A stretch of DNA of 62,628 bases, the filler included, from Sphacelaria rigidula (lineage: Eukaryota): NCBI GenBank assembly GCA_964200075.2. It is 7 parts of 7 records of this genome, joined end to end, with 100 filler letters (N's around TTAATTAATTAA, not from the genome) between each part and the next. Parts side by side here need not be neighbours in the genome. Positions count along the whole stretch, not along the records: positions 35,848 to 44,708 come from CAXNAA020009913.1; 6 more parts are not named here. The stretch is one strand, 5' to 3'. The notes beneath the pieces were generated by a model, which saw only the letters and a program-made list of their open reading frames with translations, did not search any database and had not been told where the DNA came from. The position numbers and the translations under genes were made by a program. This document shows positions 26,887 to 48,784 of the stretch, in pieces. Numbering within the stretch: the first letter of the stretch is position 1; every line of letters starts with the position of its first letter.

Positions 26887-29800
26887 ACGACGATCTGACT
26901 CGAAATTTCGAGCAACAAATGGCCCAAATCTCCCCCCCCTGTCGTAGGATGACTCTTGGGTTGGAAGGAGCACGTCGCTCCGTTGTTGACCGGAGCTGGT
27001 TACTTCACCGAGCAAGCTTCAGTCTCCGCCGTGCAAGTGGGCGTCCCGTATCGAAAGAGACGGACCTATGTGGTCACTTTGAAGGCTGATCATCAGGGGC
27101 AGGGGCCGCTGCGAGCGTGGAAGCAGCGAGTTAAAGCGTACACCGTGGCTTGCCCCATGTTGGGTCAGCTATTAGGGCGGACCGGCCCCTACTTCCTGGA
27201 GCCGACGGGATAGGGCAAGGCTATTCACGATTTCAAGTATCCGATACCCAGGTTATCGCGTTCCCGACTGACGAAGAGTAAACCTAGGTGTGAAGAATTC
27301 AAATTCCACAAGGCGGACGCAGGGGGATGGGAGGAAGCCGTCGAGCCGGAGAGAGACGATTTCGTCATAGTCGCGACTACCCTCGACCGCTACGCGACAC
27401 CACCCACGGTGAACAACGATTCCATGCCGGACAATGTGCCTATTTTCGTCCACCCCGTGGATGATGAAGGCGATTTTATCAAGCCTGGAAGCGGAAGGTT
27501 TGTTTAGCCTGACTCAGATTTGGAGCGAGGATGTAGGTTTCAGCGCGATCGCAGCGACGTGGTCTGGTGAGGAAGCAGAGTTACCAGAAACTTGGAGAGC
27601 CGCTGTAACGCGCTCGTCGGTCCCCGAGGCGGAGACTAAGTCAGACCAAGACCCTGGTGGGGGATGGCTTCAACTGAGGAGCCACTGGTACCAGGTAAGG
27701 GCAACACTAGGACCGTTCTCGAGCAGACGAGAGCGATCTTGATGGATGGACCGCGACTCGTTCTACTACAAGAGCGGAATTCCCGGCTTAGAAACATCAA
27801 GGAGAGGTAAAAAGAGGAACATCAGGATGAACGGACCAATAAGGAGCAGTATGCGTACGTTCTAGATGAGGATAATCTTCTATGGTATACCTCACCTAGG
27901 GCGCCGGCTAAGCTAGATATTCCCCGCAGTCTACCGCCAGGCTTGTTGGCGTTGGTGCACACTACGCACGGGCATGCCGGAGTAATGAGATCGACAGCAG
28001 TGATCAACGCACGTTACGAATGGCCAGGGCTTTTCACCGATACTCGCAGATACGTGCTGTCTTGGGGGTGTCGCCGTCGCAAGCGTACTAACAGTCACAC
28101 AATAGCGATGCCACCCGCCCGATTCTTGCGGGCGTGGGAGGTGCTAGAAATGGACATATTAGACATGGAGCAGGTTTCCATTTCGGGTTATAGGTACTTG
28201 TTGATCGTTGTGGATCGAGCGACCAAGTTTCTCTTTGCCTTCCCGCTTGCTGCCAAGACCACTTTTCCCGTAGCCAAATGTCTATTGAATCTCTTCTTGA
28301 CGTTCGGAGTACCCTATTTCCTTAGAAGTGACGCTGGGGGGAATTCACTCCAGAGGTATTAAGCCATGTATGCCCGTGGATGAAGGTGAAACTGGATCAT
28401 GGTCCAGCAGAGCACCCTCGCGGTCAGGGCGCGGTGGAAAGGTACGGTGGATGGTTGCACGACGTTTTGGCCGAGTTATGTGAGCAGTGGCCGAAAAGGT
28501 GGAATGAGTACGTAGATCCCGCTGCATGGATTCAGCATACCACCCCCGCATTGCCTGATAGCCCGACGCCATTCAAGCTGCTTTTTGGGCGCGAGCCGCG
28601 CACCCAAATCGACGCTGTGTGACTGGAAGTGGGGTCTCCACCTTTGAGTAGCACGGTGGAACAACAGCGACAGAATTTAAAGGATGTTCACGAGCTACTA
28701 ACCCAGCGCCACAAGCGGAGGGAGGAGGTAAGATCAGCTAGAAATGCCGAGATGACTCGCCAGTCGGCAGGATCGCGAGCTCAGGTAAGGGATCTGATGT
28801 TGGTCAAGGAGTCGGACAGCTCCCTTCTACACGAAGGTGTGCCGGCCAAACTGGTACACGAGTTGTGGACTGGACCGTGGATGGTGCGGCAGGTGGTGAT
28901 ACCAGGTCTCAGCCTCAAAGTCAACATGCAACGACGTAAAGTACGAGAACGGACGGTGTCCGCGGCCAATGTAAAGACATTTTATGTGCGCCCAGAACAG
29001 CTGCGGCATTCATTTCCAGACGAGTACTCTCAGTCAGCTTGAGGAGTTGACTTGAGGTTGGCTGAGGACATCGCGTCCATCCCACAACTGTATACGTTGA
29101 CGGACAGGAAAGTGGTAGTAGGCTCAGAGGCGTCGTGGGAATGGGAATATCGGGGGTTATTTCACGATAGGGCCGAGTCGCACTGGCTGTCAGAGGAGGA
29201 AGTTTTAGATAGCTTCACTGGGTTGCAGTTAGACATGTTTCATGCGTTGTGGAACTGTATCACCCACAGAGCAAACCGCGCCCATCTGTCACACCATCTC
29301 GAGCAGAAAGGGACTCGATTGCTCGGGATGAAGCGTTACGGCAGATTGCCCGAGGGACCAAAACCCGTGAACACTTTTCGGACCGCCAAGGTGAGCGCAA
29401 CAGGAATTCGAAGGGGTGCTTTTCGATTTCCGTCAACCATATTACCGTATCAAGTATGAGGATGGAGATTGGGAAGATGACACAACTGCAGGTACGAAAA
29501 TACTCGGTGGATGGAGGAGATACCGGAACAGTGCCTGGGTCAAGATGAACTACGAGGGAGACCGCTTCTGCACGGTGTCTAAATTCCCAACGTGACCTAA
29601 TCCGGCAGAGCGGTCAACACAGCGGGAACCTCTTCCGGACTAGATGGGGTCGCTCTGCACAATGTTTCAATTCCCTGCGTGGTCTACCTCGGCAGAACGG
29701 TTATCAAGATCGACGGCTACACGAACACAACGTTGAATACTCGAGGACGAGGAACCTGGTAACGCGGCGATCCATCGTCGAACCACGTTCAGCCCTAGGG

Positions 29801-35590: not shown

Positions 35591-36266
35591 GTCAGTCTGT
35601 GTACGGCACTCTTTAGCGGCAGCGACTCGATGCCGTGCGATATATATATATATATATATAACAGTGTTTTCGTGAGATTGAAAGTAGATGACACGATTGA
35701 GAGTGGCTTTGATCACTCACTTTAAGTGAGTCATTTTTTTATTCCACNNNNNNNNNNNNNNNNNNNNNNNNNNNNNNNNNNNNNNNNNNNNTTAATTAAT
35801 TAANNNNNNNNNNNNNNNNNNNNNNNNNNNNNNNNNNNNNNNNNNNNCCCCGGTCGCCCAGAATGAGGTTTTCGGGAAATTGGGGGGGTGAACACCGTTT
35901 TCCAGTCTGTAGGGCCCCTTGCCCCCCCAACCCTCCTCGGGACTGCTCGATATTCTCAAGGGATTCACTCATTTCCTCCCCGGGTGCCTGCCTTGAAATT
36001 ATTATGCAGCATCGAATCAGCACGTCCGCAGGCTGTCACATTTTATGGGGAAATGTCACAGTATTCTCCCGGTTATTTTGCAACAATATGGCTCTCCCAT
36101 GTGCTCGGGTACGTGCGTTATCTAACATGTGTCGAGTACGAAGCCGAACGCCGAAAGGGGTACAATATTCTGGCGAAGCTCAACACCTAAATCCTCTAGT
36201 GGGATGACCATTCGCACGCGCGTGTAGGCGGATATGCGATTTTATCACTCCAGTGACCGGCTTCAG

Positions 36267-38205
36267 TACAAGACTGGTGGCCGATATCACGGCGAGTGGA
36301 GAGACAACAACAAGCACGGCTACGGTACCAACACCTGGGTCAACGGAAACAAGTACGAGGGAGTGAGTGGCGTACATGAGCACGTATGGCCGGTATCAGC
36401 GGCATAGTGCGTACGTATGGTCCAACACAGCACAGAAAACTCGTGCATAAAAGGTGTGACCCAGAAGCCGCCGCATGGTGGATGGGATTTGACATTTTTC
36501 AAGTCGTGCCGGGTCAAACGTTCGAGTAGGGGGTCACTTTCCCACGGTCTTGTAGTATCAACACGGGATTTTACAAACTGGGCAGGGATCATTTATTGGG
36601 GATGAAAACCCGCAGAATTCAAATCTTTGTATCCACACCAAATCTTTGAAGTATGCTTCCATTTCTTCACTTGCTGGTAGCTATTGACAACTGCTACACG
36701 CCATACAAATTTGGATTTATATATCCGAAATGTCGGGGTTCTCGGTGTAAAACCAATTTTAGGGGATTTTAGGTGTCCGATCGGACCCCCAAAATTTGTT
36801 TTTCACCGAGGACCCCGACATTCCGATTGTATAAATCCAAATTTGTATGGCGTGTAGCAGTTGTCAATAGCTACCATCAAGTGAAGAAATGCATACTTCG
36901 AAGATTTGACGTGGATACGAAGATTTGACTTCTCAGGGTTTGCATCCCCAATGAAAGACGCATCTCCAATTTGTAAAATCCCGTGTTTATCATAGATACG
37001 GATATCCATCGCTGACATCCATCTTTTGCATTAGGATCAGGATTAGTATTCGGGTTCGGGTGAGGCTTAGGGCTTGGGTTCGGGCTCGGCTGAGGCCAAG
37101 GGATATATATGATTGATGGACGCGGATATCCACAAGAATATCCCAGTTGGATGTATATATATATATATACATACATATTTGGATATTCACCATGGATGTT
37201 AGATCCATCATGGATGTCCCAGAGATAAGCCCCGGATCGATATCCATATCCATGACAGATATTATATGTTAATTCAAGCCTCCTCGCTTTCGCATTACCG
37301 CCACTTCATAAGCGCTCAGGCGATCGGTGAATGGCTGTGCTTTCGTGCGCCAGTGTACGCGGACTAGTAGTCGAAATTTTAATCACTGTTGGGTCGGCAT
37401 GGAGGTTTATCTAAACAAAAAAAGCTGCACGCCATGTCAAACTGATTAATCAACCCAACGCAGGAGTGGGAAGATGGCAAGCGGCACGGGAAAGGCACAT
37501 TCTGGGTGAAGGAGGGGACAAAGCTCCGGAAACAATATGCGGGTTGCTGGGAAGGTAAGGAATATCGCAACTGCTGCCCAGGATGGTGTTCGAATACTTG
37601 AATGACTCAATGTAAAGCGTCCCTAAATGCCGTGCTGCAGTCAGCCGCGATGGATTGATTTGTGAAACCGAGGTCGCAGATACATATGCCGACCGGAAGA
37701 AGACCATACACCGTAGATATTTATCTCATGGCGAGTCATCCGTATCCTGCTCACAAGCTTGACGGGCGACTTTAAGCCTTTTACCTATGGCGTTGACATC
37801 GTTATCGTATCAGGGTCGATGATATGAGTGATTGACACAGAACGCTGTCAAGTCAAGCTCTTCTAGACGTACTTCAAGAAGCGGCAGGGTACATGATGCC
37901 AGCAGCGGAGCCTTCCCGCTCTTGAAAAGCGCTAGCGCCTTGCCCCATTCATCTCTCTCTGGTAACGACGTACCTGTCGTTAGTTTAAATATATGTGTGA
38001 CCACTGACTTTTCCCCATGTTCCATGACTCATGCTTAACCGTCAGACGAAAAACTCGTGCACCCTTCTTCGTTTTTGTGCAACTAAAAGACGACCAACGC
38101 CATGGACAAGGGGTGTTCTTCTATTCGGATGGGGCAAGATACGACGGTGGTTGGGAAAATAATCGCCGTAGCGGACACGGTGTGATGATGTACGAGAATG
38201 GGGAG
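36267..38205 (+). CDS. MORN-repeat protein (MORN3-like), three internal exons, partial
   Basis: Exons 36267 (or 36254)-36362 (YKTGGRYHGEWRDNNKHGYGTNTWVNGNKYEG), 37464-37554 (EWEDGKRHGKGTFWVKEGTKLRKQYAGCWE) and 38090-38205 (DDQRHGQGVFFYSDGARYDGGWENNRRSGHGVMMYENGE). Phases are consistent and the Y-x-G-x-W-x4-H-G-x-G MORN pattern repeats. Confidence 0.88.
36560..36987. mobile_element. Long foldback element in a MORN intron; related arm at ~9675-9792
   Basis: AACACGGGATTTTACAAA...TTTGTAAAATCCCGTGTT. Arms of ~200 bp include a long perfect block (GGTAGCTATTGACAACTGCTACACGCCATACAAATTTGGATTTATA and its reverse complement). Confidence 0.85.
36990..37255. mobile_element. MITE with TCAT(A/G)GATA-GGATATC TIRs, a degenerate TTAGGG-like core and (TA)n
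   Basis: Left TCATAGATACGGATATC, right GATATCCATATCCATGA. Hexamer array at 37031-37084. Confidence 0.65.
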
Positions 38206-38463
38206 GTGAGAAAATGTATTTAACCTATACACGTCGCCTTGGTCACTTTTAGGACGAAATGTATGAGGAACGTTCGGCAATGAGTGGTCAAATGTAGTAA
38301 GGATAGGTATGGACAGACTCCACACACCTTCCTCGATAGATCGATGTGCAATAAGCTATGCACGAGGTGCAATGATGTGTCCGAAAGCTACATGATTCAC
38401 AGGTAGGCTCACGTGACCGATGGTCAACAGTAGCAAGCAGGCAGAAGAAGCTCGAAGGCTTAA

Positions 38464-38813
38464 TGTCTTGTAACTCTCACTTATTATTCCCTTGCTCGCC
38501 TAGCACACTGTTCTCACCAAAGGTAAACAGTAGAAGCAGATGTCCGGCTCGAAGGGCAGCTCGAGAGTGAGCGAGTGTGCATGGAACGCAACCTACCCGA
38601 CCTCGGCCCGAGAAGGCGTTTCGCCTCCTCGGAACTAGGGCATATCAGCCTGTACACTAACCTTCCCCAGATAGGGTACACCAGTCTGTACATCAAACTT
38701 CCCCAGAACTATGGGAGCATTCCCATGGATGGATCGAGTGATCTGTGAGCCAACCTGACCCAAAGTTGTCTGTGGGAACAAATGACGCCTCTCTATCTTC
38801 CTTCCTCATGACA
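38464..38813 (-). repeat. 3' LTR of the minus-strand gypsy element
   Basis: Minus strand reads GGGTGGGTGAG (PPT-like), then TGTCATG...CAAGACA (near-inverted termini). Confidence 0.7.
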
Positions 38814-41800
38814 CTCACCCACCCAGACGAACCTCTATTTGAGTTGCGATGAAATCTCAAGAGCAACTAAAGTTGAGGCCTGTCTCACCCATCAAGTCAT
38901 GAGGAGACAACGTGAAAAAAATACAAGAGGGCAATGACCAGCCCGGTGCCCGATCCTCCCACACCTCGACAAGAAAACCCAAAGGTGCCTCAAAAAGCGC
39001 AATTACGCGATTGCGGTTGACTGCGCAGTAGCACACAATGCTGCTGCGAGCTAGCGAACAGACCGAAAAAAAGCACACAATGCTTTGACGCGCTATCTAG
39101 ATAAAAATCAAAGGAAAACCTCGCAAAGGACACAGTGGCAATCTCAAGCAGGAAAGCAAAACCTCAAGGACCCGAATAGGGTCGAGTGCCAGCCAGACAA
39201 AGTGGCGGCAGCGTAGAGGCCAATGGAAGGGGGCAAAGGGGGTCCAGAGGAAGTCGTCGAAGGGGCTGATGAAGGTAGAGACGAGCCGCGATAGGAGAGC
39301 CATCGTAGGTGAAGCAGTGAAGAGGAGAGCGTACTTGAATGGGAACAAGGGAAGTACCAGAACCAAACCGGGAGGGGAGATAAAAATCGCGATAAAGGGA
39401 GTGCGAAGAGATAGGACTCAAGATGGTGTATTGATGTCGTGTGTACGATCGATATTGCGCTGAAGACCTCGTCGTAGGCCGTGTGACTTGAAGCGTTTTA
39501 GGCACTAGGAGCCATGGGGTGCGGAGGGGCTGGTCGTGTAAAAATCGGGGCGAAGCTTGAGCTGAACGGGCCCAGGATCGTCGAGGAAACGCACGATGTA
39601 CGTGTCGGCCGCGGGGGCATCGACGGAGTGGGTCTGACCTAGCCACCAGAGGTAATCGCTGTCCTTATACCACAAGTAGGCATCTTTAGGGAGCGATTTT
39701 TGTTTTGCGCAAATATTTTCGTCCCATTGCTTGGTGGGTACGAGTTTGTAACCATCGGCTACAAAACGTAGTCCTTTGTCGCGGTGGAGTTCACGGGCTG
39801 CGGCGCCGCGTCTCATGTTGCGATATCCCTTGTTGTCAGCGAGCTGTTGCTGTGGGGATTGTGTCCAATGGAGAAGGATAGCACGACGGTGCAGTTGAAT
39901 CTCGGACTCGCGTTCCCAAGACGCACGCCGAAGACCTTGCCAGTGTGTCTTGTACATAACGGCAATTTTGCAGCCAGGGCCTCGAGTGATTTGGTGGCCG
40001 GAAATGTGGGACACGGCCAAGCGGAGAGGTTGTTCAGTCACGTCATCGGTGGTGACGTGGTACGGTGGAGATTTTGTTGAGTAGCTGTTGAGCACGTATT
40101 GGGTGAGACCTGCAGGCAGGTATTGAGGCATGTCCGTAGTGTCATGCGGGTTCGTGCAAGGCTTGCAACGATGCACAGAAACGCGAGATATAGCGTCGTG
40201 CCCCTGGAGATCACGAGGTAAAACGAGGTAGAGGATTTTGTTGCCAACAGGCTTGCCGTCAGGAGACGTCGGCGAGGGTCCGACTATGAGAATCTTGAAC
40301 GGGCCCGTCCGATTGAGGGACAGTTTGGTCTCCAAGACTGCTGCCTAGGCAGTGCGGTCAGCGCCTTGACGGATGGTGGACAAACTGTCGTAGATCTAGA
40401 CCCAATCGCCGATTTTCCAAGTAAGGCGTTTGTGCATCAAGTTGTAGAGGGCGGTGTTGGATCTTTCAAGGCGTGAGGCGTTGATAGCGTGTTGTTCGCG
40501 CACCAAAGTGAAAGCCTTGCGTTGACGAGCCCGGGCGAGGTCGTGGTAGGACAGCTGATCCTGGTCCAGACCTTGGTGACCATTGAAGGTATGTCTTTCG
40601 AAAACGGTGATGGGCAGACGAGGGTAGCGTCCAAGATGTAGCTCGTTGGGCGAGAGGCCCGTAGCCGCGTTAACCGAATTGTTGTAAGACAGCATGACAT
40701 GCGAAAGACGAAGGTCCCAGTCATTCTGGCGATCGTTTACGACCATGGATAGTATTTGAGCCATCGTGTGGTTCACACCTTCGGTTCCACCGTTACCGTT
40801 AGGGTGGTAGGCGCTCGTGGCAATTTTGCGAATGCCGAGGAGCTTGTACAAAGCATCCGAGAGTTCGGAGCAAAAATGTTGACCATTGTCGGAGAGGAGC
40901 CGTTTCGGGCAGCCATAGTGCTTAATGTAGTCATGCACGAGAATGTCCACTGTGCCAGCAGCAGTGAAATCGCTAGCAGTAACAGCATACATAGCCGCGT
41001 GACGGCTGAAGCAATCGGTGAAAAGCAGAATGTAGATATTACCACGGTCAGTGGTGGGGAAAGGGCCGAAGTAGTCAAACGAGACGAAGTGACCAGGAGC
41101 GTTTGGAAGCTCTATGGAAATCACCGGCCATCGTACATTCTGATGAGAGGTTTTGCGAGCCTGACATTGGAAACATCGTCAGATCGAAAAACGCGTGGAT
41201 GCTTCCATGCCGATCCACCAATAAAAGCGTTCAAGGAGCGCTTACGTGCGCGTGACGCCTAAATGGCAGGACAAATCAGAGTGACAGCCTTTCATGACCC
41301 ACGGACGCATCATGACGCATACGTGCCGCAGCGGCAGTTGTCACTGCGGCAGCCGTGTCCAAAGGGGAGTTGGGTCGGCGAACAAGCAAATGGACGTCGT
41401 CATCAGTCGCGAAGATAAAACCTTTGCGTGCCAGCTCGAGCACTTCAGAGGCGGTGGGGGCGGGTAGAGTGCCCACGGGGGTCAGGATCTCAGCCGGGAA
41501 AGGGGTGGGGCAGTTAAGCCGTAAGTACCGCATTGTCGTACGACAGAGCGATTCCTGTTGTTGGTCGCGAGCCTAATCGCAGTGAGAGTAGCCAGCGAGA
41601 AATTCTCGAAGTTGTCCTTCAGCCGGAGAGCCAACCAAACATGGTGGCTCAGGAGGGGGTGGCACAGGCGAAGAAGCAGGGGTGCCGACGTCAATATTTT
41701 GGTCCGGAAGCGGATCTGACGCATGCGGATCGCGAGTCAGAGGCGCAGGTGTAGGGAGATTCCCAGAAGGCTGCGGGGGGGTAGCGCGAACTGGTGAACG

Positions 41801-44708
41801 TGATCGACGCGTCGGGCGCGCAAGGGGCGTGGACTTGGCCGGTACAACAGTGGGCGCGTGGCCGGTTGTGGTAGGTGTTGTACGGCTCGTGGGGGCACGA
41901 GGCGGCGGCGGCGACGCATCGCGATAAGCGGCCGGCGGCGGTGGTGGCATCACGGCACGCGAAGAATTTGCGCGAGCTGCCGACCGAGAACGCGTGTTGT
42001 CGGAGATGAGGTGAACAGCTGGTGGTAGCGGCGCAGAGATGTTCGCACGAGGGTCGAAAGTGTGGAAGTCAGCAAAATCAGCAGCTGTTGGCGCTAAGCC
42101 ATCCAAAACTGCATCAGGGGGCAGAGGGCGGGGGCCCCCCATGTGCAGACCTGCCTCAGGGCATTGCAGGTCAAGCGCGTAGATGGGCGTAGAAAAACGC
42201 TGAATGGGGTAGACGCCTGGTTTATCAGGTTCAGTCAAGCGGCAAGCGGGACTGAAATCTACCGCTGTAGGGGGCAGAAGCAATCGCGAAAGAAGGTCAG
42301 CATTGCCGTTGGTTTTGCCCGGACGGTGTTTAACAGTGTACTGGTAGGACGTCAAGAACTCCAGCCACCGTTGTACGCGGGGGTTATGTTCTCCAACCTT
42401 AGCGAGTTGTTCAAGAGCTCCGTGATCTGTATAGACGTGGAAAGACACGTGGAACAAGTACTGTCGAAGCCTTTTAATAGCCCAAGTTATGACTCCGTCT
42501 TCGAGTTCCAGTGGACTCCAGTTTGCCTCGTTTGGGAGGGTTGCGCGGCTGATGTAGAAAATAGGTCGGACAGAGCCATCCAGTTGCGGCTGATTCAGAA
42601 CGGCGCCGAACCCATCTGTGCTAGCATCGGTGTGTAGTTGGAAAAGACGTGAGCCGTCTTGTACCGCATCCCAATCCGGGAAACATAGAACCGGTTTTTC
42701 GGTCAGTGTTTTTCAGCAGTTCGCGGACGGTGGCTTCCATGTCTTTAGTGAAGACAAACGGGACGTTTTTCTTCAAAACATCTATGATGGGCCGGATCCG
42801 CTTGGACAAATTGGGCAAAAGTTTGCGATAATATGAAAGTCCGCCCAACAGCGAGCGAAGCTGCGAAATATTGGTGGGCATGGGCATATCAGTCATAGCC
42901 TTGACTTTGTTCGTGTCTGGTGCAATCCAGCAGGAGAAACAGAGTGTCCCAAAAAATCCAATTCAGTGACTCCGAGTCGAGCTTCGGATGGAGAAAAATT
43001 TAAGTCGTGTGTACGCAAGCGGAAGAGGAATTCCGGTAGAGTGTGAACATGCGTCTTGGGGGAGGCATCAAAAGCGATAGCATCGTCTAGATACATGATA
43101 ACATGCTCGAGACCGTCAGTAACGCGTTGCATGAGGCGTTGAAAGCAGCCGGGTGCTATGGCATACGAAGCCATTCGAAAAGCCCTGAACATGTACAGAA
43201 CGCTGTCAAGGGAACTGTATCCGGGTGAATTGCATTTTGGAAAAATCCACATGCCAGATCGAAAGTGCTGAATATTTTTCCTTCGCCGAGAGAGTCGAAG
43301 ACCTCGTCGATGCGAGGTATGTGGATTTTTCCCACGACAGTGACGCGATTCAGCCGTTTGTAATTCACGATGATGAGTATGTTGCCATTTTGGGGGGGGA
43401 CAACCACGAGGGGTGAGGCCCATGGCGAAGACGAGTGTTGAATCAGAGCAGCTCCTAAGTATGCATCCAAAATGGCATTGACTTTTTTGGTGAGGAGGGG
43501 ATTCGTTCGATATGGTCGAGATGAGATAAGGTTGACGAAACGCCAGGTTGCAATGTTATCTCAAATGGCAACGTTTTACAATGCCCGAGATCCGTTTTGG
43601 ATCGGAAAAATCTGTCCTGATATTCCAGGAGAACATCTTGAAGCTCTTGGATGACGGCGGGCTCCCAGCCCGGACCATGTAGGTCAAAATGGACATTACG
43701 CAAATGAGGTGGAAGTTGGTGCCACATTTGCAGGAAATATTCCCGAGACTCGACCGATAAGCGTTGAAGCCGTCATCAGAAGGTTCAGCAGGGGGTCGGT
43801 CGGGTTCCACCGCAGAAATCCGAGTCGGGGGTGAGGCGGATAGATTGAAGTATGGCTCATCGACGCAGTGAACAAAACCATCAGTCAGCGGCGTGAGATC
43901 AGGCGCCGGAGGGTCGGCTACACAGGTTTCCAGAGGAATGTGCATAAGAGGAGCCGCGGCGATGCCCAAGACATCGCCAGGTTCGAAATTAGCATGCCTG
44001 TGAGAAGCAGGAGTTGTTCGCCGTCCGAGACAAAATGCTCGGGGCCAGCGGGCGCGCCAACTTTAGGCAGCGATTCCGCAAGGTAGTGGCCGGTGAGGGC
44101 AGGCATACCGTTGCGGCGAACCAGTGAAACTTCCAAGAGTTGAGGCTCGTCGGAAAGGGTGACGCTAGAACTGCCATTGTACCGAAGATAGTAAGTCGCT
44201 CCGGTAGCCTGCTCGTTCTTTTTGTAGGCTAAGGCACCATTGAGGGTACCAAAGTTTTCTAATTTGGGTTCTCCACGAGGCGCCGACTAAGGCGATAATG
44301 GTGGGAGGGTGCGGTACGTACGTTGGTCGAACCGCATGTAGCTATCTCTGCCAAGAAGGAGAGCATGATGCATGGTGCTATCAGGGATGATGTAAGCCCA
44401 AACTGCGAGACTAGCCGAACGTGTATCATTGTGGAAAAATTGTACACTAAGACGAACAGATTTTCGTGTCGTCAAGGGTGTTTCGGAGTCGCCGAAACCG
44501 CCCCAAACGCGAGGTTGGGTGATGGTTTCGCAGACATCGGAAGCAGCGCTAGTCTGCTTCATATGATTCCACATGGATTCGTTGATGAATGTCTGTGGAC
44601 TACCGCTGTCTAACAACGAGACGCACTTGGCGCGCGCGGTGGCGTAAGGGCCGCAGTGTAATGCTACGCGGGTAGTGAAGGTGGCAGGATCAACGGATAC
44701 CTTACCAC
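38464..44708 (-). mobile_element. Decayed Ty3/gypsy (chromovirus-like) LTR retrotransposon: protease-RT-RNaseH-integrase-chromo, PPT and 3' LTR
   Basis: Minus strand: protease LDSGS (~44610), RT SSSPWASP...FDLACGFFQ...MYLDD (~42900-43470), RNase H VYTDH...RVQRW (~42300-42640), integrase FDYFGP...LLSDNG...YHPNGNGGTE (40396-41124), GPF motif (~40300). Many frameshifts. Truncated by the contig end. Confidence 0.93.
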
Positions 44709-44989
44709 NNNNNNNNNNNNNNNNNNNNNNNNNNNNNNNNNNNNNNNNNNNNTTAATTAATTAANNNNNNNNNNNNNNNNNNNNNNNNNNNNNNNNNNNN
44801 NNNNNNNNCAACAATCCCCGCGCTGGTCGTTCGGGTCTGGTCGATGATTTTTGCCTCCCTGTGATTGGGTAGTCGCTCGAAGACTTATTTTTTATTGTTC
44901 CACTAACACAGGGTCAACCCTGTGTTAGGGGGGGTCCGGTCCCAAAAGAGTTAAGGGTATTTTCCTCATACCCCCAGACCGGTTTATGC

Positions 44990-46980: not shown

Positions 46981-46999
46981 CACTCTTAAACCGTCACAG

Positions 47000-48784
47000 C
47001 ATCCCTGCTTCCATTTGTCCAAATGGCGTACAACACTCTATATCACAATACAGTACAAGATACACCGTATTTTGTGCTGTTCGGAAGACAGCCCAGATTA
47101 CTAATTGACATTATACTCGGAATACCTGAAGAGAGCCAAGCAGCAACACCAGAAACATTTTCCAAAGAAACACGGGAAGGCCTACAGTTTGGATTTGAAA
47201 TTGCGAGACAAGCCCTACGAGAAAGAGCGAACGAGAAAGAAAACAAGAACGAATTCAAATATTTCCCAGTGTTCAAACCGGGGCAAAAAGTACTTTTGTA
47301 CCGACCATACCAAGATTCAGAAGGGCTGAACGCGAAACTCCAATTACCATGGAGAGGACCATTCACGATAACCGAGAGACGATCGCCGGTTGTATACAGA
47401 ATCAAAATAGGCGACGGCCCTCAAGAGACGTATGTCAGTACATCTCGCTCATTTGATATCACCCGCGAGAAACAGCGCCAGCACCGGATTTTGACACGTT
47501 GAGCGAGTTGTTCCTGGGTAAACAGATATCCCTATCAGAGATAAACCAACCAGACGGAACGTTGCCCACAACAGAAAGCTACGCCGTCGAAAAAGTGATA
47601 AGTCATGCGCCAGGTCTAGGTAGGAAGAGTCGTCATAATTATAAATATCGGTTGAGACTTAAAGGCTACGGCCCAGCGGCTGACCTGACCTACCGCGCGG
47701 ACGAAAGACCACAATGTAAACATCTCATCGATAAATACTGTCATGACAAGGGATAAGTTGAATTCTCACATCCGGACTCGAAATCCAAAACTACAGGGAA
47801 ACGGAAACGGATGTGGCTGTTCAACAGACTGTTTGAGCGTCCTAGCAAAACGCTCAGGGGTTGAGCAGTACCCTGACGTCAAAATTCGGAGATTAATGGG
47901 AGCCAAGAACGATCTTAGAACAATACAGACATGAACCGAAGAAGATCTGACATATCAGCGGTGACGGAGGTGCAACCTCCCAAGGTAGATAACTCATCAG
48001 CAATGAGGGTAGTTGCTGACGACAAGGTTTATTTTGACGATGTTTAGACAAAAAAGCACAATGCTCATAGGCCGAAAAACTCGTGTCCACCGCTTTGTTA
48101 CTAACGCGAGGACGTAGTCCCACGTCGATCTCAGAGGAACCGAAGGCATCCCAGAACCCGGGTATGAATAACCCAGGCGCCCGTAGACCAATCAGTGTCC
48201 CAGTTCCCAGGCATACATACCAGCAGATGCAACCAGCACCCAAGTGTAAATACATCTGATGAAACAGCTACACGACAGAGAAAACCAAAATTAAAAGGGT
48301 TTGCAATACATGCACTGCTACTGACCACAAGTAGCTAAAATGTACTGGAGGTGCTTACTCAATACTGGAGTATAGAGAAGGGCTACCTTTGCGATCAGTG
48401 GTGGCGTGACTTAATCAATGATAGTCACTCAAAGAAACTTCCACAATTATATCATCAGCAAATCTGATCATCGCCTCGTCCCACCAGCCATAGCCTCGAT
48501 GGGCTTGAGGCGCATAGAGGAGGGGAAATGTGGAGGATACTTCTTTGCAGTGACATATCAGAGACCGATGCGAAGCATGTATGAAGAGCCAGCGCAAGCA
48601 GGTACAAGGTAGGAACGGTCCGGGTAGACCAGATTACCGAGGACCCTGTAATGACAACGAAACTAGACAACTCGGGGTGATGCCAGGAAGAGCCTAATAT
48701 TAGGACGGTCCAACATCCCTCGAGGAACTGGTCGCCTCTGTCGACCACTCCCTGTCTGACCCAACTTGTTGCCTACATCTCACA
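47000..48784 (+). mobile_element. Ty3/gypsy chromovirus 3' remnant (integrase C-terminus, GPF, chromodomain, probable PPT and LTR)
   Basis: MAYNT...TPYFVLFGRQPRL, KLQLPWRGPF, chromodomain YAVEKVISH...YRLRLKGYGPAAD (~47580-47730). AGAGGAGGGGAAA is followed by TGTGGAGG (48529)...ATCTCACA (48784). Confidence 0.82.

Follow-up and report, generated by a model that had tools for sequence, protein, structure and literature searches.

A degraded Gypsy integrase of Sphacelaria rigidula ends in a chromodomain followed by a predicted Tudor-like barrel

Introduction

Nature's clearest cases of targeted integration are those in which the integrase is fused to a reader domain. According to the sections of a 2025 Genome Biology paper that treat this point (PMC12477816), brown algae lack H3K9me1/2/3, H3K27me3 and nearly all 5mC, which raises the question of what the chromodomain of a transposon integrase reads there. 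Chromatin-reader domains fused to Ectocarpus Gypsy integrases are described in the same sections, with targeting proposed as their function.

The locus considered here lies in a window of 62,628 nucleotides (filler included), made up of seven parts of the Sphacelaria rigidula genome (GCA_964200075.2), in the part that comes from CAXNAA020009913.1. An earlier reading, made from the sequence alone, had suggested that a minus-strand open frame encodes the end of a gypsy integrase, with a chromodomain followed by a PWWP-like domain. What is this tail, is its second domain a PWWP, and what might the two domains do on an integrase?

Results

A dead element with an integrase tail

The frame is free of stops for 279 codons at 39505-40344 (minus) and does carry, as had been claimed, the GPF motif, the chromo-like string and the "PWWP-like" string (39553-39684, minus). 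A length of 279 codons is by itself little above chance expectation in 62 kb; the frame is regarded as a real coding remnant because of its homology, with 837 proteins matching the tail at E<=1e-3, 46 at E<=1e-30 and a best E of 3e-81. Judged by sequence similarity, it encodes the tail at the C-terminal end of a Ty3/gypsy integrase. The element can be divided as follows, from its 3' end upwards:

38330..39417, minus: non-coding 3' end region, perhaps with an LTR (read depth; boundaries approximate)
39418..41334, minus: degraded reading frame of the integrase and its tail (aligned to intact relatives in one tblastn HSP)
39418..39504, minus: tail remainder after the premature stop, with the strand-5 equivalent and then short helices (comparison with P0158, model strands)
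39505..39507, minus: premature stop, through which the window copy loses strand 5 of the barrel and the short helices that follow (relatives read through)
39508..39684, minus: predicted Tudor-like SH3-type barrel, strands 1-4 and the loop ahead of strand 5 (models, fold searches)
39685..39855, minus: predicted helical linker with an arginine-rich helix (models, alignment of tails)
39856..40029, minus: predicted chromodomain, three strands and a helix (P0158 model residues 35-92)
40279..40305, minus: GPF motif, integrase C-terminal SH3-like module (frame reading)
40801..41103, minus: integrase catalytic core, rve (PF00665, E 1.1e-9, residues 26-126 of frame 40396-41178)
41573..42712, minus: RNase H region (PF17917, E 1e-27), then a Pro-rich spacer down to the integrase
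42893..43560, minus: reverse transcriptase, spread over different frames (PF00078, E 6.3e-6 and 0.052)
43996..44706, minus: protease-like region (P0205 residues 500-734, 50% identity; Peptidase_A2B weak, E 0.14)

The integrase and tail frame is 54% identical to the intact relative P0162 and 56% identical to P0205, and is interrupted by five premature in-frame stops (41242-44, 41179-81, 40396-98, 40345-47 and 39505-07). The last of these closes the open frame given in the earlier reading. The open frame itself stands, but its end at 39505 is not the true terminus: P0158, 85% identical to the window over the region searched, and other intact relatives extend about 30 residues past this position, and the frame is kept open from 39505 to a natural stop at 39418-39420.

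Further upstream, successive HSPs of the reverse transcriptase region to P0205 begin in differing frames, and the protease-like region is the last part alignable to relatives ahead of the N mask at 44709. Neither NADAR nor any match to P0205 residues 1-499 was found for this copy in the window; the copy is either 5'-truncated or concealed in this part by the N mask that begins at 44709. With five premature stops, frame changes at several points and a 5' part that could not be detected, it is dead and non-functional, and it has no functional importance of its own. Searched by tblastn, the window yielded only this one copy of the tail.

Insertion context

None of the sequencing runs is recorded as RNA. 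Runs X1-X3 are treated as RNA-like because they contain spliced GT..AG joints that X5 lacks; X5 is DNA-like by its behaviour. One contig of X5 differs at the base at position 39506. A single-copy X5 contig stops at 38327, from where bin depths climb from 67 to 4,667-77,719, and 38330..39417 is highly repeated in the organism. No LTR pair or direct-repeat partner was found around the element, nor a 5' LTR matching 38330..39417. In X1-X3 the element is covered by contigs that are 95-99% alike, in which transcription of the family and carry-over of repeated DNA are inseparable.

The element lies antisense to a gene encoding MORN repeats, downstream of a splice donor of that gene that is in use:

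36226-36362 and 37464-37551, plus: upstream exons of the MORN gene (spliced contigs)
38087..38206, plus: exon of the MORN-repeat gene, with a GT donor at 38207 (spliced contigs)

The earlier suggestion that the element sits "probably in an intron" is partly supported, as regards the donor at 38206/7, which is used in RNA-like contigs that run on into sequence absent from the window; the matching acceptor was not located in the window, where two 30-letter consensus strings of the loose ends remained unmatched at <=3 mismatches. One insertion is too small a sample to show gene-body targeting.

A brown-algal family with a jointly conserved tail

Every named source among the relatives of the tail is a brown alga. 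In the 29 full tails aligned, conservation extends over both domains and the linker together. The last 75 residues are matched at E<=1e-3 by 26 of the 150 hits listed, and a word-indexed search with residues 150-279 alone returned six proteins. Uninterrupted polyproteins bearing the tail are 2075-2338 aa long, and full-length relatives have the order NADAR, protease, reverse transcriptase, RNase H, integrase, tail. The N-terminal NADAR domain was found in five of ten long relatives scanned (P0176, P0182, P0205, P0196 and P0211); the gene models of the other five begin further downstream. P0176 and P0182 are Ectocarpus sp. proteins, and P0176 has the tail as well as NADAR.

The original proposal of a second gypsy family is supported in so far as these relatives share an integrase tail of gypsy type in which a chromodomain precedes a Royal-family-type beta-barrel. 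It is also distinct from the other element of interest in the window, near 29 kb: their integrases are 20-29% identical and their second domains show no detectable similarity (hhalign probability of 0.15% between the Tudor-like piece of the 29-kb element and the family barrel).

Predicted structure of the tail

AlphaFold2 models were built from two intact relatives, 47-88% identical to the window, rather than from the window copy itself. Both are confident (P0158: pLDDT 86.4, pTM 0.77; P0160: pLDDT 85.2, pTM 0.78). The sequence-only reading had named AlphaFold as a check on its second domain, and a Royal-family-type beta-barrel is indeed predicted with confidence (pLDDT 85-86) in the two relatives. 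In the models, the tail beyond the GPF module probably forms one compact unit of a chromodomain, an arginine-rich helical linker and a five-stranded Tudor-like barrel. Searched with Foldseek as a whole, the tail gave no matches at E<=1e-3, the two-domain query producing long, poor Spindlin alignments (rmsd 17-19). Likewise, no Pfam family matched the tail of the window copy at E<=1; its sole PDB match, a BED-finger (E 0.85), was judged to be due to chance.

The first domain is confidently predicted to have a true chromodomain fold. In the P0158 model, strands 40-50, 56-64 and 71-74 form a three-stranded antiparallel sheet, followed by a C-terminal helix (75-90). A VIA search aligned 53 residues to the 55-residue chain of the Chp1 chromodomain 3g7l_A (Z 8.4, rmsd 1.6), and 28 of the first 30 VIA rows were chromo or chromoshadow proteins by name. 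The Pfam Chromo family (PF00385) was detected at E<=0.1 in 10 of 76 relatives, with a best E of 2e-4. At the positions that, by motif, we take to correspond to the HP1-type aromatic cage (Y-W-Y), aromatics occur in 3/29, 29/29 and 1/29 tails; the middle position alone is kept, and the three-residue HP1 cage is incomplete.

The linker contains a strongly conserved arginine-rich helix at 39772-39825 (minus), in which one arginine is invariant in all 29 tails and two others are present in 26 of 29. A resemblance of linker plus barrel to extended Tudor domains (Z 5.1-5.4 over 75-89 residues) was judged too weak.

Roughly 80 residues separate the GPF motif from the chromodomain downstream of it, and roughly 200 separate it from the barrel; the barrel is thus an extra domain, not the integrase's own SH3-like C-terminal domain. 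It is predicted as an SH3-like barrel of around 60 residues with five strands, which in P0160 span residues 75-79, 85-93, 99-104, 110-114 and 131-136, with a block pLDDT of 88-97 over residues 71-140. The window copy retains the equivalents of the first four (all minus):

39664-81: barrel strand 1
39625-51: barrel strand 2
39586-603: barrel strand 3
39553-70: barrel strand 4

A probable Tudor-like rather than PWWP-like barrel

Tudor-type domains predominate among the structures listed closest to the barrel, none of them at a statistically strong score. The 13 Foldseek matches displayed down to rank 17 are all PHF1 or PHF19 Tudor domains, with 25-27% identity, a target TM of 0.60-0.67 and an rmsd of about 2 over 45-48 columns, albeit at E 9e-3 or worse; there are none at E<=1e-3. 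A profile of the 76 relatives, compared with the PDB, has the PHF19 Tudor domain as its three best matches, weakly (E 0.33-0.45), and the nearest solved structures also include the Tudor-type domain of TDRD3. In a second look with VIA, 41 of 50 rows are Royal-family domains, 37 of them Tudor-type (Spindlin, Tudor and the UHRF1 tandem Tudor among these, Z 5.1-6.5). Atlas searches gave Royal-family leads only, with all scores <0.9. Among the eight families that Pfam lists for the 76 relatives at E<=0.1, Agenet appears in three relatives and TUDOR is absent. From the models and these searches, the barrel is probably Tudor-like (Royal-family, SH3-type), with no statistically strong match, a judgement made jointly with the targeting explanation discussed below.

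The barrel keeps part of a possible aromatic cage. The positions aligned to the PHF19 cage residues, which we take to be W50, Y56 and F74 in agreement with the numbering in the alignments, are aromatic in 0/29, 19/29 and 22/29 tails. Further strand-1 aromatics, each kept in 25 of 29 tails, might take their place. The check on aromatic-cage conservation proposed earlier thus has a mixed outcome for both domains, in which some aromatics are kept and the cages are incomplete.

These cages bear on a different account of the barrel, which is unlikely but has evidence of its own: a generic SH3-like module with no part in reading histone methylation. Such a module could have nucleic acid, a host protein or some component of the integration complex as its ligand. 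It could also serve as no more than a scaffold for the chromodomain and the arginine-rich helix, leaving the binding to these two. Not only is the canonical cage incomplete, but six divergent tails have neither of the last two cage aromatics. The Z values of the barrel in VIA are all <8 and tied within about 1, with the unrelated SH3-like domain of TraI equal at 6.1-6.3 and Spt5 KOW also level with the Tudor domains; the linker-helix arginines (29/29 and 26/29) are the most conserved positions of the tail outside the chromodomain. However, the structural neighbours are mostly histone readers (the 41 of 50 rows above), the 25-27% identity to Polycomb-like Tudor domains is high for this fold, and the barrel adjoins a chromodomain on an integrase, a known place of targeting modules.

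The original assignment of the second domain as a PWWP, which would make it an element-encoded equivalent of the LEDGF PWWP reading H3K36me3 and DNA, is now improbable. It had some appeal, since an L-W-W-L motif at the start of strand 2 occupies the place of the P-W-W-P of PWWP domains; its first W is present in 28/29 tails and its second in 19/29, and the preceding position is variable. PWWP chains do appear in the searches, at Z 5.1-5.5 in VIA (the Shuguo PWWP at Z 5.5, rmsd 2.5, 56 aligned) and at Foldseek rank 37 (DNMT3B, E 0.074), and two short helices follow the barrel. These helices are, however, predicted with lower confidence (P0158 block pLDDT falling from 77 to 47), PWWP accounts for only 2 of the 50 VIA rows against 37 that are Tudor-type, and the best matches by both sequence profile and Foldseek are Polycomb-like Tudor domains of PHF19 and PHF1. 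Pfam reported no PWWP, either for the window tail at E<=1 or among the eight families listed for the 76 relatives at E<=0.1.

The reading in which the frame is open by chance, within decayed repeat DNA, and the second domain is not a conserved one can point to the pseudogene state of the window copy and the empty Pfam result of its tail, but is next to impossible given the 837 relatives with a best E of 3e-81, the intact polyproteins of 2075-2338 aa that end in the same tail, the conserved columns spanning both domains and the confident models.

Discussion

A proposed role in chromatin tethering

The explanation we favour, with a probability of about 0.7, is that of a brown-algal Ty3/gypsy integrase tail with a chromodomain, a linker and a Tudor-like barrel, likely involved in chromatin tethering. 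Held by the tail to nucleosomes, or to a host factor that is itself bound to chromatin, the integration complex would insert new copies preferentially at some sites. Such tethering and insertion bias are the most likely role of the tail by analogy with chromovirus chromodomains; the binding to chromatin, as well as the identity of the ligand, we infer. Of the earlier notion of an element-encoded reader, the Royal-family-type fold is borne out by the models, while the word "reader" stays conditional, since neither domain has its full canonical aromatic cage.

More speculatively, and doubtful at present, the chromodomain, the arginine-rich helix and the barrel might act as a single fused "supradomain", recognising a composite feature of the nucleosome and steering integration into a chromatin state specific to brown algae. 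Methylation of H3K36, H4K20 or H3K79, together with a second contact, would be a candidate for this feature. If this were true, it would be the first bivalent reader inside a retrotransposon integrase and a natural probe of the unusual histone code of brown algae. A cage-reduced chromodomain joined to a Tudor-like barrel in any case provides a concrete, testable handle on the mark or factor that is bound, on the cooperation between the domains and on the sites where these abundant elements accumulate.

Comparison with known systems

The N-terminal NADAR domain of full-length relatives probably places the family, compared by description and on sequence features, in the NADAR/chromodomain Gypsy lineage of Ectocarpus. 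In the sections of PMC12477816 on this lineage (Gypsy-12_Ec32, for example), the host is likewise a brown alga and the curated NADAR elements are 13.5-14.5 kb long, a length judged compatible with Pol proteins of 2075-2338 aa. These sections give the lineage "putative C-terminal chromodomains" and mention no Tudor-like barrel following them.

A Tudor-type reader on a brown-algal Gypsy integrase does have a precedent in Gypsy-10_Ec32, where, according to the corresponding part of PMC12477816, a Tudor domain was seen in a transposable element for the first time. It belongs there to a separate Gypsy lineage, for which that part mentions no NADAR, whereas the family described here has one. The element near 29 kb, with a weak PTM/DIR17-type Tudor match (E 1.3e-4, under the Pfam cut-off), may, on sequence grounds, be of the Gypsy-10_Ec32 kind. 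The earlier suggestion that algal retrotransposons acquired such modules repeatedly agrees with what PMC12477816, as far as the relevant passage goes, states for stramenopile Gypsy elements; its passage on the Ectocarpus chromodomain lineages regards them as unrelated to, and outside, the chromoviruses.

Chromoviruses carry the chromodomain alone, while in the family presented here it is combined with a barrel. Gao et al. in 2008 reportedly divided the integrase chromodomains of chromoviruses into group I and group II. Those of group II lack the first and third cage aromatics, according to the portion of PMC3605345 that describes them, and the same two are missing here.

For the barrel, the closest solved structures, by Foldseek and by sequence profile, are the Polycomb-like Tudor domains of PHF1, PHF19 and MTF2, which are H3K36me3 readers. 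They share with the family barrel a G-L-aromatic-aromatic-L-G-K-I pattern in strand 2 and an F-x-D-D after strand 3. Neither match reaches significance (E 9e-3 and 0.33), the position of PHF19 W50 is never aromatic here (0/29) and, unlike the Polycomb-like Tudor domains, the family barrel has helices on both sides and is joined to a chromodomain.

LEDGF/p75 is a host protein that tethers lentiviral integrase in trans through its integrase-binding domain, while its PWWP domain reads chromatin. The concept proposed for the tail is the same, a Royal-family reader linking an integrase to marked chromatin. The difference is that LEDGF is a separate host protein, whereas here, where PWWP membership is unsupported, the integrase has the reader-type domains in its own chain. 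Compared with the reader fusions of Ectocarpus Gypsy elements, in so far as these are set out in the relevant sections of PMC12477816, the family extends the principle from single domains to a tandem arrangement.

Integrase frame and decay of the element

The 279 codons without a stop at 39505-40344 (minus strand), read by inspection of the frame, contain all the strings quoted in the sequence-only reading and carry on the frame of the upstream integrase. That frame extends to a natural stop at 39418-39420; therefore, the stop at 39505, where the previously described frame ended, is premature. The element has the following parts:

41334 down to 39418, minus strand: single frame with zinc-binding region, rve core, GPF motif and tail (frame reading)
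Within this frame, minus strand: rve core, PF00665 (Pfam E 1.1e-9)
40279-40305, minus strand: GPF motif (frame reading)
In the tail, minus strand: barrel strands AYLWYK, LWWLGQTHS, TYIVRF and PVQLKL (model and frame)
39418-39420, minus strand: natural stop of the frame
Upstream of the integrase, same strand (minus): RNase H (E 1e-27)
Upstream of the integrase, same strand (minus): reverse transcriptase, in pieces
Upstream of the integrase, same strand (minus): protease-like region

Five premature stops (41242, 41179, 40396, 40345 and 39505, minus strand) break the frame, and at two of these sites (places 39506 and 40397) contigs of the sequencing runs have another letter, which fits copy-specific decay. 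Residues 500-2333 of the 2338-residue relative P0205 align to 44706-39421 in six pieces, the starting frame differing from each piece to the next. Its first 499 residues have no counterpart anywhere in the window; therefore, judging by this alignment, the copy is either 5'-truncated or has its 5' part concealed or missing where the N mask starts at 44709. No LTR pair was found around the element in the window. The copy is a pseudogene in decay. Bin depth in the DNA-like run X5 is 67 in single-copy flanks versus 6,465-77,719 across 38.5-44.7 kb; depth is not copy number, and we read it only as showing that the organism of that run has the element sequence in a highly repeated state, at an identity of 95% or above.

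Between RNase H and integrase lies a proline-rich low-complexity spacer (41363-42050, minus strand); pieces spanning it are 34-37% identical to relatives, versus 54-56% for integrase and tail. Paired 44-base N runs recur about every 8,945 bases (8863 ... 53768), accompanied by two 10-base N runs in the window, and the pair at 44709-44808 covers the place where the aligned portion of the element begins on its 5' side. Contigs of the RNA-like runs X1 and X2 connect 39070 with 38698 through four additional letters; this joint lies inside the 3' part of the element, which is repeated.

Structure of the tail

An AlphaFold2 model of the relative P0158, calculated with 76 aligned relatives, has a mean pLDDT of 86.4, a pTM of 0.77 and a pLDDT of at least 90 at 167 of 237 residues. 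Residues 35-92 are modelled as three strands and a helix. Among 48,161 PDB representatives, the Chp1 chromodomain matches this part best (Z 8.4, rmsd 1.6, 53 residues aligned of a 55-residue chain). Named chromodomain or chromoshadow proteins fill 28 of the first 30 rows, the other two being GEN-1 and ribosome-bound New1. The chromodomain proposed from the sequence is supported by this predicted fold, and the assignment is sound. At the HP1-type cage positions, with columns that we assigned from the HP1 motif pattern, aromatic residues occur in 3, 29 and 1 of the 29 full tails, respectively; the cage is reduced.

After the chromodomain, the P0158 model has two helices and a short strand, then five strands, the fifth of which falls past the premature stop in the window copy. 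The natural fragment P0160 (chromodomain C-terminal helix, linker and barrel), modelled with 49 sequences, gave a pLDDT of 85.2 and a pTM of 0.78. A Foldseek search with the barrel returned no match at E<=1e-3, and Tudor domains of PHF1 or PHF19 fill all 13 rows shown to rank 17 (E 9e-3 to 3e-2, probability 0.99-1.00, identity 25-27%, rmsd about 2 over 45-49 columns, target TM 0.60-0.67 except for the 301-residue PHF1 chain 5xfn, TM 0.14); the DNMT3B PWWP domain is at rank 37. With an all-against-all aligner, matches reach Z 5.0-6.1, none Z 8, and include TraI SH3-like, Spindlin-4, UHRF1 tandem Tudor, Shuguo PWWP, TDRD3, AGDP3, RDM15 and PHF19. A second structural look, restricted to Foldseek's 995 chains, showed 50 rows (20 Spindlin, 14 single Tudor, 8 TraI, 3 UHRF1, 2 Agenet, 2 PWWP and 1 Spt5) with Z spread over only about 1.4. 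The three best PDB matches to a profile of the 76 relatives are PHF19 Tudor domains (E 0.33-0.45, strand 1-3 region), and the member-by-member Pfam scan of these relatives listed Chromo (10/76), myosin SH3 (4/76) and Agenet (3/76).

Each match alone is non-significant; because the searches agree, we read the modelled domain as a small Royal-family barrel of SH3 type, best called Tudor-like, a label that stops short of a subfamily. The second Royal-type domain proposed earlier thus stands, as an SH3-type barrel in the models, but its PWWP identity, the weaker rival, is not favoured, with PWWP in just two of the 50 rows and no PWWP family among the Pfam families listed for the 76 relatives, where TUDOR is absent too. 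With the GPF module some 200 residues upstream of it, the barrel cannot be the SH3-like C-terminal domain of the integrase itself. The high pTM of the whole tail suggests that chromodomain, linker and barrel pack as one unit.

Relatives and lineage

Among 1.84 billion representative proteins, 837 match the tail at E<=1e-3; of these, 427 reach E<=1e-10 and 46 reach E<=1e-30 (best 3e-81). Its last 75 residues are matched by 26 of 150 listed relatives, and of 160 other proteins compared, 91 cover 60 or more of the final 185. The named relatives, a minority of all, are without exception from brown algae: Ectocarpus sp. CCAP 1310/34, Nemacystus decipiens and what we take to be Undaria (a single record labelled JGI Undpi1). 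P0158 shares 85% identity with the window copy over residues 150-279 and extends about 30 residues beyond the premature stop of that copy. The same tail ends uninterrupted polyproteins of 2075, 2184 and 2338 residues, in which NADAR is the first domain (E 1e-45 to 1e-49); two Ectocarpus proteins have NADAR too. Because its full-length relatives carry NADAR, the tail family probably belongs to the published NADAR Gypsy lineage.

In two public gene models, P0111 and P0179, the transposon tail is fused to unrelated domains. WSC and TIMP were each found in one member of the 76-member Pfam scan, presumably P0111 (Nemacystus), which was among those scanned; P0179 (Undpi1 label) has kinase and cyclic-nucleotide-binding domains. 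Both are probably annotation chimeras, not host genes using the barrel.

Location relative to the MORN gene

The MORN-repeat gene lies on the plus strand. In contigs of the RNA-like runs X1-X3, GT..AG joints link 36362 with 37464 and 37551 with 38087; in X5 these joints are absent and an unspliced contig spans 36862-38327. On this basis the exons are:

36226-36362, plus strand: MORN exon (X1-X3 joints)
37464-37551, plus strand: MORN exon (X1-X3 joints)
38087-38206, plus strand: MORN exon (X1-X3 joints)

The donor at 38206/7 is used. Past it, contigs run on for 107-255 letters found nowhere in 35900-44700, the first 30 of which match nowhere in the window, and repeated sequence starts about 130-340 bases past the donor. 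The element is antisense, in sequence skipped by the MORN transcript. The proposed intronic location is likely, although the acceptor was not found in the window.

At 38206-38207 (plus strand) the RNA-like runs have two different continuations: a single X1 contig leaves at 38206, and each run has two contigs that leave at 38207 and agree at only 0.68. This points to alternative exons downstream or to transcripts of paralogues. Within the first MORN intron seen, 36488-37075 is a short, extremely repeated sequence (X5 bin depths 139,947 and 58,992 versus 67 in flanks), with several internal-deletion joints in X5.

Other elements and published lineages

A second gypsy-type element, whose integrase has a GPW motif, lies at 27811-29595 (plus strand). 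Its chromo-like stretch (29043-29459, plus) has no Pfam match at E<=1, and a short frame (29395-29595, plus) has a PTM/DIR17-type Tudor match (E 1.3e-4) below the Pfam cut-off. Compared with the barrel of the family studied here, it showed no similarity; this element is possibly a member of the Gypsy-10 lineage, published as Tudor-carrying. A third integrase is present as its C-terminal end (46990-47756, plus), with a GPF motif, weak Integrase_p58_C and SH3_Tf2-1 matches and, following these, a chromo-like string undetected by Pfam.

Text passages of PMC12477816 describe four Ectocarpus Gypsy lineages with reader domains: three have "putative C-terminal chromodomains", Gypsy-12_Ec32 being an example from the NADAR-carrying lineage among them, and in the fourth, Gypsy-10_Ec32, the C-terminal domain is a Tudor domain, for which it is called the first Tudor-carrying transposable element. 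They also state that reader domains were gained independently several times, that Ectocarpus lacks H3K9me1/2/3 and H3K27me3, and that H3K79me2 and H4K20me3 are associated with repeats. A barrel after the NADAR-lineage chromodomain is not mentioned in these passages. In a full-text literature search for Tudor domains on LTR-retrotransposon integrases, this article was the sole relevant case among the matches listed. Chromo and PHD fusions with transposable elements appear in passages of bioRxiv 10.1101/2021.11.30.470311, and a further preprint consulted was bioRxiv 10.64898/2025.12.07.692804. The feature is real and its family already known; as far as these text passages show, the tandem of chromodomain and Tudor-like barrel is an undescribed variant.

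Proposed role and comparison with known systems

In the best-supported reading, the tail would be a cis-encoded chromatin-tethering module of the integrase. The tail is conserved and its fold predicted; chromatin binding, the ligand and targeting are what we infer for it. Likeness to the H3K36me3-reading PCL Tudor domains and the gene-body location of this single copy are no more than suggestive. The cage residues of PHF19 are W50, Y56 and F74, numbers that agree with the chain numbering of the matches. In a profile-to-PHF19 alignment, the positions facing them are aromatic in 0, 19 and 22 of the 29 tails, respectively, which leaves the canonical cage incomplete. In strand 1, two aromatic positions are conserved in 25 of the 29 tails; a divergent subgroup of six tails (26-33% identical) lacks aromatics at both the Y56- and F74-facing positions. 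Outside the chromodomain, the best-conserved tail positions are in the linker helix, with one arginine in 29/29 and two more in 26/29. The main rival gives the barrel a non-histone role and leaves the binding to these arginines or to the chromodomain.

As a tethering module, the tail would act on chromatin as the chromovirus chromodomain does. Its own chromodomain is alike in cage-aromatic pattern to the group II chromodomains of plant chromoviruses, which have the same reduced pattern in passages of PMC3605345; the ECR-1 chromodomain, in passages of PMC11541908, retains all three cage aromatics. The proposed tethering also resembles that of lentiviruses by LEDGF, with the difference that the tail is built into the integrase.
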